A stretch of 64,000 nt of DNA, taken from contig OZ024750.1 of NCBI GenBank assembly GCA_964016885.1, positions 8,308,001-8,372,000 of the forward strand, read 5' to 3'. Position 1 is the stretch's first letter, and each line of letters begins with the position of its first letter. Both the position numbers and the translations under genes were made by a program. Under the pieces are notes generated by a model. The model was given only the letters and a program-made list of their open reading frames with translations, did not search any database and was not told the origin of the DNA. Positions 18,346-27,689 of the stretch are shown one piece after another. This stretch comes from Eledone cirrhosa. Its lineage: Eukaryota.

Positions 18346-19671
18346 CCTTATAACTATAATCCTATCCAATGTCCGTGCTTTAATCTTAGCATTAAAATTC
18401 CTTCAGAGCAAGACTGGATATATATCCATACACCAAACTCTATTAATATTGTATTTCATTATTCCCTGTTTAAATCAATTAGTCAATTTAATGAAATAGC
18501 TATTTTCTTGTGGATTTAGTTATTAAACAGAACACAGGTGATAAAATATCTGAGAGATATTGTTAGATTAATTATAATGATTTAAATCTAATGTATATTA
18601 CATGAAATCATTTATTAGCAATCTCATTAGCAATCAACAAGCTGTGTTATTCAATCATCTACACACAATTATTTTAGAAACTGACAGATAATTGTATTTT
18701 TCATCAAATCACACTCTCATTAAACATGAAAAGACAGCCATCATCATCATCATGTTTCTGTAAGTGGTACAGCCAGAGTTGGGCTGTCACACTAGACATG
18801 TTCATGGTCAACTGTGACCACTGGTTTCTGTTCCCTGTTATGCACATGAAATGCTTAGCAGCCTTGTGTTTGAATGGTGAGATTCTTCATTGAATATTAG
18901 CTGTTGAAATCCAATTCCCACATCCAAACAGTGATTATGTTCCCATATCATCACGTTCATGAGTGTGTATATATATATATATATATATATATATATATAT
19001 ATATATCATCATCATCATCGTTTAACTTCCATCTTCCACACTAGCATGGGTTAGCATATATATATGTGTAAAAGGTAAACAGAAATAACAACACAATCAG
19101 TACAGTATATGGAAGGAATATATTAGGTTAACGCTTGAAATAACAGGAAAAGGGTCTTAACGTTTTGGACGCAATTCCTTCATTAGAAAAAAGGAGAAAT
19201 TAGAAAAATTGAAGGGACAGGCAGGGCGGAATTTGAAAAATGATTTTTAGAGAAAAATAAAAGATCTATGTATATATATATATATATATATATATATATA
19301 TATATATATATATATAAATATATATATATAAATAAATATATAAATAAATATAATATATATAATATATATATAAATAAATATATATATATAAATAAATATA
19401 TATATATATATAAATATATATATATATAAATATATATATATAAATATATATATAAATATATATATATAAATATATATATATAAATAAATATATATATATA
19501 AATATATATATATATATATATATATATAAATATATATATATAAATATATATATAAATATATATATATAAATATATATATATAAATATATATATATATATA
19601 AATATATATATATACATGAGATTCTACAGGACTAGAACTGTTTCATTCATTAGAAATCATCAGGAATCTGT

Positions 19672-19720
19672 GATTCCTGATGATTTCTAATGAATGAAAC
19701 AGTTCTAGTCCTGTAGAATC
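19672..19720 (+). ncRNA. Type I hammerhead ribozyme motif (mirror copy on - strand at 19620-19668)
   Basis: GATTC-CTGATGA-TTTCTAATGAAT-GAAA-CAG-TTCTAGTC-CTG-TA/GAATC; stems I and III pair, stem II is short with a U-U closing position. Confidence 0.75.
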
Positions 19721-20040
19721 TCATCTATATTAAAACTGTTATACTCTGCTATGTATTGAGTACCTTACTTACTGTGGTTACCTCCGATTCAACCCGGAAT
19801 AACGTAAATATATATATATAAATATATATATATATATATATAAATATATATATATATATAAATATATATATATATATATATATATATATATATATATATA
19901 TATATATATATATATATGTATGTGTATATGTTATATCAATTTATTCCACTTCCCATATATCTATTCAATTCTACCAGGAAGTTAAAGTAAATTTTTTTTT
20001 ACAATAATTGAAAATTATTTTTATTTTTCCCTTTGTTTAG

Positions 20041-20187
20041 ACATTTGGTGGCAGGCGATGGTCTAGTGGTGCCCAGAATCTTAACAATTCTGTTGAAACT
20101 CAAGTAACCTCAAAGAAGGGAACTCAAGGATTTGGTGGACCAATAATCTTCAAAAAAAAACACAGTTCAGGAATTGCTTCCTCCAAA
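20041..20187 (+). CDS. PLCE1: PLC epsilon exon (post-PH region)
   Basis: ctttgtttag acceptor, AAA|gtgagg donor, 147 nt in frame; TFGGRRWSSG... continues the conserved AI-x-x-FGGRRW motif of PLC-epsilon. Confidence 0.88.
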
Positions 20188-21406
20188 GTGAGGTTCTGAA
20201 CATTAAAAACTTTTTCACACTCTCTCTTTCTATCCTACTCTCTCTCTCTTATCTCTTTCCTATTCTTCTTTCTCTCTCTCTATCTCTCTCTCCCCTACTC
20301 TCTCTCTTTCTCTCTCTGTGCTGTGTCTATAGCCAATAGCTAGTATGTAATCTTTTATTCTTTGACATTACTATAGGAGCAAACCATGTGTAAACCTCTA
20401 ATTCCATGTCAATACACCTGACATTGGCATGAAACTATGTCTGTCAGTTACACCTGTAATAAACTCAATGTACAAAAGAAAATGTAAAATACTCTGCATT
20501 TTTGTATGTATGTATGTATATATGGTCACATGGTCGGGTCGTTGGCGACTAAACTGGCAACCCCACCAAGGTTTCTTGGTGAGGAGGGTGACTTTGGACA
20601 TCCTGCAGGACTAAAAACAAAACCTGTCAAAGGGCAAAGGAGCTCTTAAGAGTCAATGGCCATCCAAAATCACAGGGAGAGATGACCCCTTAGCCTTTAT
20701 CAAGGCAGAATTCTAAGAGAAGGAAAACTCTGATATAACACCTGCAACACTGATGGTATCCAATGATGTTGACTTGTTCTTCTTTTTGGTAAATATCATC
20801 TTGGTTAAGAGAGTGGGACTGGCTTTGTGCAGTGCCTTTGCTCACTATAAAAGCTTCACAGCACAGGCTTTGCTTTATATCTGGAGATCTCTCTGCACTT
20901 GTCATCACATGGTACCATGGGCCCAGCACTATGTGTCAACAATTGTCACAGGTGTAGTGTTTGTACCGGAGTTTTCAAGTTGCTGGCTGGACTAAAAAGT
21001 CACACTCGTTCAGGGCATCGGTAGGGGTTCTCCTACATGGATATAAAGTAGTGGCCGTACTCGAAAACGAGTTGGCAGCCACCATGTATGTATATATATC
21101 TGGTACTTTCTCAAACCTGCAAAGTTTGCCTCAAAATGTGCCCAATTTTTGCTTTTAGTCTTTCTTAGATCAGCCTTGAGCAAGCAAACATGTGATCATT
21201 CCAGGTGAAACCATGCTCTCTTTCTTTCATAAAGAGTGAATCCATGAGTAAATTATCAAATACATCCTTCCTATTTTGAAGGTTATGATTCAAGAGGGAA
21301 GTGACTATTATTTCTAACAGGTGAGATGACAGTGGCTAGCAACACTTGTTGTTTTGTCTTTACAGAAATGTTGCAGCTGTTGTGTATTGATGCAGTTGTT
21401 GCTTGC

Positions 21407-25100: not shown

Positions 25101-25416
25101 TTGACGCTTGAAATAGCAGGAAGAGAGTCTTACCATTTCAAACACTAGTCCATCAGAAGAAGATAGAGTTAGAAATAAAAGATAAACAGAAAGTAAAGAG
25201 TGATGAGAGGAAGGAATGGGAAAGAAAATTGGGGAGAAAAAAAACACACGTGTGTATTCAGTCAGCTATCTTATTTATATAATTAATACTAAGTTAATTA
25301 TGGTATTAAAACTGACATAAATCAATTGCAAGATTTGAAAAAATTTGAAAAAATTTGAAAAAATTCTGATTTTGTTTGTTTGTTTCTTTTTCTCGGTTTC
25401 CATTCTGTTCTAGCAG

Positions 25417-25897
25417 GATATCAGTCCAAAAGGTTCAAGTAGCTCAAGTACATTTAGTAGTTGTGAGTCAACATCAAAAGCTACATACAGTCATCAACAG
25501 ACTCCCAGTCCAACCCGTAAAACTAAAACAGAACCAAGTAAGAACTATATGAATGATCCAGTGATAAACCAAATTCAAACTACCAACTATTTACCAGGCT
25601 TTAGATCAAGGAATATAACATACAGCTTCACAGAGCATTACCATTCCAGGCGACGGAAACGATCGCTCAGTGCTGGCAGATGTCTTCCCTCTTCCGAAAG
25701 TAGATCAACTGCTATCACACATTCAACACAACTGTCTTTCTTGGATTTTGTGGATCTATTCAAAGCATTTGAGTTACGCTGTCGAAAGGATTTGAAAGAT
25801 TTGTTTGAACAGTTTGCCATTACTAAAACACTTGCAGAGATTGAAGAAACAGTTTCCTATGATTTTCATTTATATAAACCATCAAGTAAAGACATGG
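25417..25897 (+). CDS. PLCE1: PLC epsilon exon (Ser-rich region and EF-hand-like segment); alternative start 25414
   Basis: TAGCAG tandem acceptor, G|gtaaga donor (phase 1); DISPKGSS...QLSFLDFVDLFKAFELRCRKDLKDLFEQFA. Confidence 0.9.
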
Positions 25898-27198
25898 GTA
25901 AGATTTTATTTACCTTATTTTTTCTTTTGTATTTTCTAACTCAAACCTAAAGAGTTGAGCACTATAGAGAATCTGCTGCTAGTGTAGTTATTGTTGAACC
26001 TCAGCTCAAATCTGATCAAACAGAACTAAAAATGAAAGACATCCCAGCAATGACCATACAGTTATTTGAATGGTTTTTAATGTTTTTCTCTTTTTAAGAT
26101 GGTGTGAATGTGATTTGGCTACTATTTCTTAAAGGTCAAGCTGCATAAAGCCTTTCAAAAGGAGGGTTGGAATCAAGAAGGGTACCCAGCATAGAAACTG
26201 CATCAGCTCTGATTAAGTATTGACTTGGTCTAGGTTGATCTGTCCAAATCTTGCTAGTAGGGAAAATGGATGAAAAATGACAATGATGATGATATTGGTG
26301 ATGAAAGCCAGGCAGACTCTGCAATATGTTAAACCACCTATTTGCTTTAAGGAGTAGTAGAGTGGGTAATATGAAAAGATCAGTACCCCGATGGCTGAGC
26401 CCCGGCCGTTTTGACAGCTAGATCCCGGCTGGAGCTCAGCCGTCAGGGTCCTGAATTTGTTTATATATATATATACACACATACTAAATACTGCAGAAAA
26501 TTGTGAGAAGCCTACTAGTCAGAGATTGTTTTTCACAAGGGACTAAATCGGGAAAAAAAAGCTAACCACGTACTGTTCATCATTTTGAAGTGTTAGAAAT
26601 GTAGCAACAAATACTTAACATTAGTGAGCAGTCTCACACCACATTGCCAATTTATAGCTGAGCAAGGGAATGATAAGTATTTTTACCAAGAACATATGCA
26701 ATGTTTGTTGTTTTTTTGTCTGAAGGTTTGCATTCTAATGAATTGGCCATCTGTGACTATCATCCATCATCTCATTTAATGTGGTATGCTATAATACGAT
26801 TTACATAAAGAAGCTTTGTCAGTGTCAAGGGAAATAAAACTAAAGAGTTTGACATATTTATCAGAGCTGACAGGAAATGGCTATATTGTAGGTCCTGTAT
26901 ATACTGTTAAGCTGATTATATGTAAAAAGATATATATATATATATATATATATATATATGTATATATGTATGTATAAATAGGAGACCCATTCTAACCCAT
27001 GCTAAATAGATGATAATATATATATATATATATATATATATATTATCATCATCATTGTTTAACATCTATTTTCCATGCTAGTATGGCTTAGAATAGTTGT
27101 CCTATTTAGAAGCAAGTTGGGTCAGGTGACCATGTCTTGCTTATATATATATATATATATATATATATATATAGTAATAATAATATTTAATATAGAAT

Positions 27199-27249
27199 GG
27201 CTTCTACAGGACTAGAACTGTTTCATTTGGGAGAAATCATCAGGAAGCC
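27199..27249 (-). ncRNA. Type I hammerhead ribozyme motif, same family as 19672
   Basis: Minus strand reads GGCTTC-CTGATGA-TTTCTCCCAAAT-GAAA-CAG-TTCTAGTC-CTG-TA/GAAGCC; 6-bp stem I. Confidence 0.72.
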
Positions 27250-27689
27250 CTGTATTGAGTACCTTACTTACTGTGGTTACCCCCGATTGAACCCAGGATA
27301 AACTTATCTATATATATATATATATATATATATATGCATGTATATGTGTGTGTGTTTGTGTGTGTATGCATGCATTTAGCCTGAAATATGTGCAGCCCAG
27401 CACAAATGACAAAAACAATAGGTAATCATTATAAATAATACTTGAGAAATTTGGGCAAATGTCCCCTCCCCACCTCGTAATGGACTAAAAGTGGACAAAA
27501 GGGTGTCTCTCTGTTCACTATTATCTATCATCATTTTCCATTTGCTTTTTCATGCCTGCATGTTTTGGATGGGTCCTTTCTAGCACAGCTTCACTTCACT
27601 CACTGCGTTCCAGCTCCATCTCCTCTCTTACACACTACATGTTATTCCTCTTATACCTAGTTTTTTTTCTCTAAGATCCTTTATGCTCC

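Follow-up and report, generated by a model that had tools for sequence, protein, structure and literature searches.

Inverted and truncated copies of a type I hammerhead motif in an Eledone cirrhosa gene, and their probable origin from a Penelope-like element

Introduction

What kind of element left three related, partly palindromic hammerhead motifs in the TA tracts of an animal gene, how were their inverted arms formed, and do the differences between them reflect selection on a ribozyme? These questions are raised by a stretch of Eledone cirrhosa DNA (assembly GCA_964016885.1, contig OZ024750.1, positions 8,308,001 to 8,372,000, forward strand). This stretch of 64,000 nucleotides is referred to as the window, and positions are counted from its first letter. 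The three motifs, named copies A, B and C, lie within introns of a phospholipase C-epsilon (PLC-epsilon) gene. With a probability of roughly 75%, we read them as extremely 5'-truncated ends of a TA-targeting Penelope-like element (PLE), the inverted arms of which would have arisen by fold-back and recopying of the cDNA. PLE membership is inferred until the copies can be linked to an open reading frame (ORF), and we file them as a type I hammerhead motif rather than as a match to the consensus of the minimal hammerhead ribozymes (min-HHRs) of PLEs. An original prediction, made from the letters of the window alone, had described the motif but left it outside the context of a PLE-like insertion.

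Hammerhead cores

A hammerhead descriptor in its strict setting (core with a stem I of at least 5 bp and at least 3 further bp of stem III) recovered three complete type I cores, one on each strand of copy A and one on the minus strand of copy C (Table 1). When 100 dinucleotide shuffles of the window were used as background, any core at all was found in 1/100. Only two of the three observed cores are independent, because the two in copy A are mirror images. The looser setting gave seven real matches against 0.12 per shuffle; three belong to this family, two to a palindrome at 56.5 kb and two are unrelated. The latter (16939-17017 and 36490-36569) have no relatives in the window and were set aside as chance, and the shuffles therefore understate the background.

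The nucleotides C3 U4 G5 A6 N7 G8 A9 / G12 A13 A14 A15.1 / U16.1 H17 follow in order on both strands of A and in C, flanked by an open stem I of 5-6 bp and a closed stem III (helix III, 4 bp); B has the 3' half only. Helix III of the long-arm core in A carries an 8-nt loop with CUAG, and cleavage is predicted after GUA at 19715. The U-U that had been predicted at the base of a short stem II is present in both A and C, as U10.1 and U11.1. Above it, the third pair of stem II is C-G in A, giving 3 bp, but C·A in C and in the long arm of B, which leaves 2 bp. Stem II shows the opposite of covariation; its stability is marginal, and a competing fold exists. Two alternative registers of stem II were rejected: the shifted UUU/AAA register of C has a probability of about 2e-5 and is no improvement, and a bulged base after A9 leaves, by inspection, one canonical pair. 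The Rfam matches that were obtained were likewise discarded: microRNA or snoRNA models had matched hairpins and simple repeats, in every case under the gathering score.

Anatomy of the copies

A BLAST search revealed exactly three family members in the window, all with a common tail, dispersed at spacings of 5.2 and 2.3 kb and forming no tandem unit. The general layout is, in order, a TA tract, a short inverted arm, the centre, a long arm, a linker, the tail and a second TA tract. A and C are identical at 47/51 positions of the tail, and B and C are 80% identical over 50 columns. TA tracts flank A, B and C, the one to the right of B being of only about 5 units. One family in three states, lying in TA tracts, is what the original prediction had claimed, and on both points it was right.

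The region 19616-19724 of copy A had been described as a perfect 109-bp palindrome with two full hammerheads. Both hammerheads are there and the 53-bp arms match at 53/53 positions, but the 3-nt spacer at the centre is not palindromic, so the palindrome is not strictly perfect. The short arm stops about 9 nt past the cleavage site, inside the TA tract.

Copy B is, as expected, a shorter palindrome without CUGAUGA, with arms of 43 bp, one mismatched pair (24869/24930) and a 4-nt spacer. It keeps more than the GAAACAG...CTGTA thought to be all that was left: the 5' half of the core is lost, but a stem II/loop II segment of the native length of 12 nt is retained, as is the stem I 3' strand, the first base of which is A, not G, in both arms. 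The mirror of helix III replaces the sequence upstream of the central TTTC.

Copy C is a single antisense hammerhead, in agreement with the prediction. Unlike A and B it has no paired arms, and it is without the long-arm ribozyme and without the linker of about 30 nt between stem I and tail that A and B possess. About 11 nt of AT-rich sequence lie between the end of homology and the TA tract. The short arms of B and C end at the same AT-rich point, about 20 nt past the predicted cleavage site; in A and B the long arm extends to about 90-100 nt beyond it, and the three tails end at about one place.

A lone minus-strand match to the tail block was also observed at 10234-10251 (17/18 to copy B), in surroundings free of hammerheads.

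Table 1. Positions in the window of the three copies, their parts, related families and the host gene
Feature	Position	Strand	Description
Copy A, overall	19616..19806
Copy A short (inverted) arm	19616..19668	-	Complete type I core 19619-19669, 6-bp stem I
Copy A spacer	19669..19671		3 nt, palindrome centre, directly 5' of stem I
Copy A long-arm hammerhead	19672..19720	+	5-bp stem I, CUGAUGA at 19677, GAAA at 19696
Copy A linker and tail	19721..19806	+	Shared block from 19752; mostly long-arm-only; TA tract next
Copy B, overall	24855..25024
Copy B inverted repeat	24855..24944		GAAA-helix III-UA and stem I 3' strand per arm, CUGAUGA absent
Copy B centre, TTTC-N8-GAAA	24892..24907	+	Spacing of the stem II/loop II segment native to A and C; proposed fold-back point
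Copy B linker and tail	24945..25024	+	Shared block from 24967
Copy C, overall	27174..27308
Copy C short-arm extension	27174..27198	-	Homology stops at about 27185, matching end of short arm of B
Copy C single complete core	27199..27249	-	6-bp stem I, U-U, 2-bp stem II; antisense to host gene
Copy C junction	27244..27250	+	May be stem I 5' strand (antisense), deleted-arm 3' strand, or part tail
Copy C tail	27251..27308	+	47/51 identical to A; TA tract next
Family 2 copy D	8418..8612	+	Inverted repeat and tail between TA tracts; tail has GTATTGAGTAC block common to A-C
Family 2 copy E	33647..33842	+	Layout and centre as in D
Family 2 copy G	26354..26466	-	Centrally shortened inverted repeat, GAAA-helix III-UC half only
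Family 2 solo piece	8663..8745
Family 2 fragment	7795..7834
Family 3 copy F	56465..56893	-	Inverted repeat 170/171 bp, one-sided tail of about 85 nt, between TA tracts
Host gene PLC-epsilon	3376..45402	+	Exons mapped with two named homologues

Probable origin from a Penelope-like element

Our reading of the copies as PLE ends is based on the cores, the arms, the tail, the TA flanks, the intronic position and the centring of B on TTTC-N8-GAAA. PLE insertions have been described as lacking their 5' part and as having an inverted copy next to them, a tail of 30-40 bp at one end, hammerheads in the pseudo-long terminal repeats (pLTRs) and a bias to TA (PMC8557442; this and all other papers are cited for the portions of their text that were available). 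A head-to-head inverted, 5'-truncated copy is likewise found here, and so is a TA- or AT-rich target. TA runs lie on both sides of A, B and C, of copies D, E and F, and on one side of copy G, the last four belonging to two further families (2 and 3) in which arms and tail are arranged likewise in TA tracts. Self-priming has been invoked for inverted repeats that lie head to head and have palindromes where they meet (PMC3846280). Furthermore, a purified PLE protein cuts AT-rich DNA, makes a tail through an internal start and uses mainly uncleaved RNA; the PLE hammerhead needs protein, and its cleavage is dispensable for insertion in vitro (PMC11167929). By analogy, copies A-C may work like a PLE end bearing a weak type I hammerhead with predicted cleavage.

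According to the mechanism that we propose, the endonuclease of the element would nick a TA tract, and reverse transcription would begin at the tail end of uncleaved element RNA. Synthesis would halt in or just beyond the ribozyme, and the cDNA end would fold back, in B on the native TTTC/GAAA repeat and in A directly upstream of stem I. Copying would then run on into AT-rich sequence, 9-20 nt beyond the cleavage site, which would be joined to the other end of the target, and a later deletion would have removed most of the long arm of C. The ribozyme of the source element would have been weak, working best as a dimer via helix III or with the help of protein, and under some purifying selection. 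No trigger for the inversion just 5' of stem I is visible in the sequence of A, and the joining of two cDNAs end to end is another possible route to the head-to-head structure. A hairpin at the end of the tail of A was considered as a start signal for reverse transcription; its preservation in B and C is doubtful, and no such role is claimed for it.

Several observations weigh against a PLE origin formed in this way. In each of the three families the tail is one-sided, but its length is about 80 nt, compared with the published 30-40 bp. A Pfam scan of 148 of the 183 filtered frames of the window, leaving out the 35 shortest (55-58 aa), found no PLE reverse transcriptase (RT) or GIY-YIG domain, and the sole RT in the scanned frames has PHD-like matches and no GIY-YIG match. 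A missing PLE ORF is expected, because the copies are under 200 bp; no ATG-led frame was seen in the tail when it was read by eye. The A that begins the stem I 3' strand of B would be incompatible with the closing pair, barring a change in the partner that was lost, and target-site duplications are unreadable inside TA tracts. An exact 25-nt pattern gave 0 matches to relatives in bacterial and archaeal contigs, and in the searchable supplement of PMC8557442 none of five diagnostic repeat motifs was found, although matches there could be masked by line breaks or by files left unconverted. Rfam hammerhead models had 0 matches in the whole window (E<=1) and in the isolated motifs (E<=10), although such a score is an aid to detection and not the definition of a type I hammerhead.

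Structure and energy add to these objections. The motif departs from the min-HHR consensus (PMC4209133) in having U-U instead of G10.1-C11.1, no extra base after A9, with 12 nt in all from A9 to G12, and a stem II of 2-3 bp instead of about 4-8. Folding estimates, which cover secondary structure only and ignore core tertiary contacts, give isolated A -4.9 kcal/mol in the hammerhead fold and -5.7 at the minimum, and isolated C -6.3 and -12.5, respectively. As a DNA hairpin the centre of B reaches -3.1 kcal/mol, but two of its six pairs may themselves be products of fold-back, and the TTTC/GAAA hairpin in the sequences of A and C reaches only -0.6; either priming is therefore weak, or the template of B was better suited. 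Finally, head-to-head structures are argued in PMC3846280 to need an antisense template, unlike the proposed cDNA fold-back.

A much bolder speculation is that the helices of the ribozyme dictate where retroelements invert, that UUUC after A9 is an off switch which pairs with GAAA, keeps the template uncut and primes the fold-back of the cDNA, and that the palindromes spread as non-autonomous hairpin retroelements. We give this little credence. If true, helix-directed inversion would tie PLE hammerheads to unexplained inverted insertions and would seed introns with long double-stranded RNA. The formation of tandem and inverted PLE insertions has been named as an open question (PMC8557442), and if inversion centres map to ribozyme helices genome-wide, it becomes testable with the existing in vitro PLE system. 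What hints in this direction is that the inversion point of B coincides with a hairpin overlapping the ribozyme, and that the palindromes of family 2 are perhaps copied as units.

Selection on the motif and the double change in stem I

Over 20 nt, from GAAA up to the cleavage site, 3/3 copies have the same sequence, the GAAA-helix III-UA block. The tails differ at 13/50 (A/B), 10/50 (B/C) and 4/49 (A/C) columns, and one-sided Fisher tests of block against tail give p values of 0.0075, 0.026 and 0.25, respectively, for comparisons that overlap and are not independent. Selection on the structure in the source elements, as originally proposed, is moderately supported by this invariant block but not via covariation. 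The invariance fits catalysis as well as a role in binding or dimerisation, and sequence comparison does not separate the two. Two features speak against a strict constraint: the lack of maintenance of stem II, and the A with which the stem I 3' strand of B begins in both arms.

Stem I reads GAUUC/GAAUC in A and GGCUUC/GAAGCC in C, exactly the letters from which a compensatory double change had been deduced. Between A and C there are differences at 2/6 positions per strand in stem I, at 4/12 in the stem II/loop II segment and at 0/27 in core plus helix III. Covariation, the check proposed with the original prediction, was tested on a six-row alignment to which A and B each give two mirror rows that are not independent. 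In stem I, two pairs have both partners changed, a covariation value that 58/500 shuffles reach as well. With two independent sequences, a compensatory change in stem I is unproven.

Furthermore, both stem I 5' strands abut rearrangement junctions, which could recreate complementarity. Two copies lying head to head carry their stem I strands as direct repeats (19664 and 19716 in A), and a deletion between these results automatically in a perfect stem I. When the sequence between the 6-nt repeats of A was removed in silico, the product was an antisense hammerhead whose stem I was perfect and which continued into sense sequence. Head-to-head ribozyme palindromes are thus a trap, in that a deletion can mimic a compensatory change. 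For C itself, a single central deletion with a native GGCUUC is probably the better account, being somewhat more parsimonious than a collapse.

That GGCUUC is native, that the stem I change is truly compensatory between subfamilies and that a ribozyme with U-U and a short stem II is actively maintained has slightly less than an even chance in our view, and is compatible with a PLE origin. This is supported by the two pairs that differ on both sides, and by a structure that is 93.9% paired, above all slid controls (28-41%). B carries the 3' strand allele of C, which is hence not private to C. One central deletion suffices for C, and a comparable central loss is found in copy G. A U-U hammerhead of the axolotl cleaves 22% in 1 h as a monomer and more as a dimer (PMC7229834). 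The unchanged core and helix III agree as well, but 0/27 is expected with p 0.11 at the divergence of the tail. The small number of independent sequences, the shuffles that match the covariation score, the broken third pair of stem II in B and C and the position of both 5' strands at junctions argue against it.

The odds are somewhat against, though not by far, a stem I change that is a product of rearrangement without selection, either because the long arm of C collapsed between direct repeats or because GCC came from the tail. The in-silico deletion is consistent with this, as are the aligner, which puts the junction of C on the 3' strand of the long arm, and copy D, which like C has GCCC just before the shared tail block. 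A collapse would require a second deletion of about 30 nt without clear microhomology, and the alternative a chance 3-nt match. Moreover, A is left unexplained, since both of its arms are intact and its 5' strand still matches its own 3' strand.

It is rather unlikely that the motif is a decaying or deliberately inactive relic, in which the block is kept as a signal for protein binding or pairing while UUUC sequesters GAAA and leaves the RNA uncut. The minimum fold of isolated A, which pairs the stem II 5' strand with G12-A14, speaks for such a relic, but nearest-neighbour folding neglects the tertiary contacts of the core. Stem II varies while helix III and its loop are invariant, there is no Rfam match, and insertion in vitro did not need hammerhead cleavage (PMC11167929). 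Nevertheless, every core nucleotide is intact in both complete copies, and PLE hammerheads that are weak yet cleave have been described (PMC4209133).

We consider it improbable that the copies are fragments of a non-LTR retrozyme, a short interspersed element (SINE) or an element like a miniature inverted-repeat transposable element (MITE), and not of an autonomous PLE. They are short and non-coding, family 2 has arm-specific alleles (see below), and retrozymes have been proposed as derivatives of PLEs (bioRxiv 2026.07.22.740005). However, retrozymes form head-to-tail tandem repeats of about 150-1000 bp with hammerheads, in place of which three dispersed copies are found. A, B and C each have a centre of their own, which separate truncations would lead one to expect; the tail outside the inverted repeat does not fit a MITE, and the two arms of A are identical. 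Fold-back artefacts of reads or assembly could account for arms as identical as those of A (53/53) and F (170/171), but are very improbable for short, embedded palindromes that are confined to repeat ends, have one-sided tails and include older ones with diverged arms (D 42/54, E 50/53, B with one mismatched pair).

Predicted activity of the present copies

For helix III, the computed self-duplex (-12.8 kcal/mol) is far more stable than the hairpin (-1.4 kcal/mol), in line with a dimer in this model. The closing pair of stem I has in its context a probability of about 1e-51 in A (plus strand) and about 4e-5 in C. Within the pre-mRNA of the host gene, no copy in its present form is predicted to be active. 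This gene is on the plus strand, where the sense core of A would be locked in a 53-bp hairpin; no cutting is predicted for B, because it is without the 5' core, nor for C, because it is antisense to the gene.

Related families and other inverted repeats

Family 2 has only the GAAA-helix III-UC half, with a palindromic loop, and has an 11-nt tail block in common with the A-C family. At one helix III position, all long arms (4/4) have one allele and all short arms (3/3) the other (permutation p 0.029). This suggests that palindromic units may be copied whole, and family 2 is possibly a palindromic non-autonomous element. The change is of CpG type, and independent decay could mimic the arm-specific pattern.

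Each arm of copy F of family 3 contains a full hammerhead (56589-56659 minus and 56785-56855 plus), with an 8-bp stem I, a long stem II starting with A-U and a palindromic 6-nt helix III. As a PLE-type motif it is more conventional than that of A-C, and probably younger.

Other inverted repeats were observed in the window. A perfect one of 116 bp at 35790-36149, with a 93-nt spacer and a one-sided extension of about 35 nt, lies between TA tracts and has a GAAATGCGCA motif as in family 3; no 5' core was found in it. Another of 80 bp (98%) at 7879-8271 encloses 233 nt of unique sequence and has one end on a TA tract, and its frames are without Pfam match. Further short inverted repeats are located at 5497-5589, 34726-34764, 48271-48319 and 63387-63504, the last with a TA tract at its centre.

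The host gene and its surroundings

The window is AT-rich and microsatellite-rich animal DNA, and about 10% of it is within 25 nt of a TA tract of 5 units. The PLC-epsilon exons are on its plus strand. RasGEF, PH and PI-PLC-X domains were found in that order across the exons by the Pfam scan, and the exon 12987-13904 matches solved PLC-epsilon structures at E 5e-26. Among named relatives, the best is a gastropod protein (48% identity). A and B are flanked by matched exons at 13853 and 25492, and C by matched exons at 25818 and 32315; further, unmatched exons may fall within these two gaps.

A 618-codon open frame on the minus strand (57330-59186), with an RT domain and the PHD-like matches, looks like a truncated non-LTR element, presumably of RTE type. 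About 4 kb of GGT/AGT-type tandem repeats with strong skew (49700-53900) give long frames of low complexity.

Comparison with known systems

PLE min-HHRs occur in thousands per genome, often solo or on opposite strands, have low activity and share a G10.1-C11.1 consensus (PMC4209133, Cervera and de la Pena 2014). Copies A-C resemble them in being type I, with a full core, a stem I within the range of 3-6 bp and a palindromic element in helix III that would permit a dimer, and in occurring mostly singly or on opposite strands as remnants of truncated elements. In two motifs of the same source, those of M. japonicus and S. kowalevskii(2), cleavage follows A, as predicted for A-C, and the extra base after A9 is likewise missing. 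A difference is that helix III of A-C, with a 4-bp stem and an 8-nt loop, is not minimal, and that a PLE ORF is unlinked.

With the endonuclease-bearing (EN+) PLEs, that is Penelope/Poseidon, Neptune, Nematis, Naiad and Hydra (PMC8557442, PMC3846280, PMC11167929), the copies have in common the 5' truncation, the head-to-head copy, the tail at one end and the AT-rich or TA target, but not the length of the tail. Their clade is not assignable without an ORF. Naiads are reported to be without canonical hammerheads, and Neptune, from its reported microsatellite bias, would be a guess.

The motif is indeed a non-canonical hammerhead variant, as the original prediction stated, but the variant is not new. 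Natural hammerheads with U10.1-U11.1 and stems II of 1-2 bp are known (PMC3088659, Perreault et al. 2011), and share the mismatch and the short stem II with A-C; pseudoknots stabilise many motifs of the collection reported there, whereas no such contact was identified in A-C. About 60,000 hammerheads of the axolotl have U-U at the foot of helix II, and their cleavage is measurable (PMC7229834). These HHR_Amex2 motifs of non-LTR retrozymes are, like A-C, type I motifs of an animal, weak as monomers and better as dimers. They differ in being canonical, with contacts between loops 1 and 2, and in 350-bp tandem repeats that yield circular RNAs, whereas A-C are solo, inverted and truncated. The U-U variant and PLE-type palindromes are both already published traits.

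Further background on small PLE hammerhead variants is given in a review (PMC6765202). For Octopus vulgaris, 31 recently active PLE families are reported, with hammerheads unmentioned in the available text (PMC13282606), and the giant squid genome has 235 Hammerhead_1 matches (PMC6962438). Neither the A-C family nor a link between inversion points and ribozyme helices was found described in our literature searches, the scope of which did not include subscription papers, Repbase and Dfam. Lunse et al. 2017 is said to be the main paper on small PLE hammerhead variants and may already list the A-C motif. The copies add an apparently undescribed hammerhead family, probably molluscan, to the many known from PLEs. 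New in comparison with these are a palindrome, that of B, whose centre coincides with the native UUUC/GAAA hairpin, and two sister families that share the same layout.

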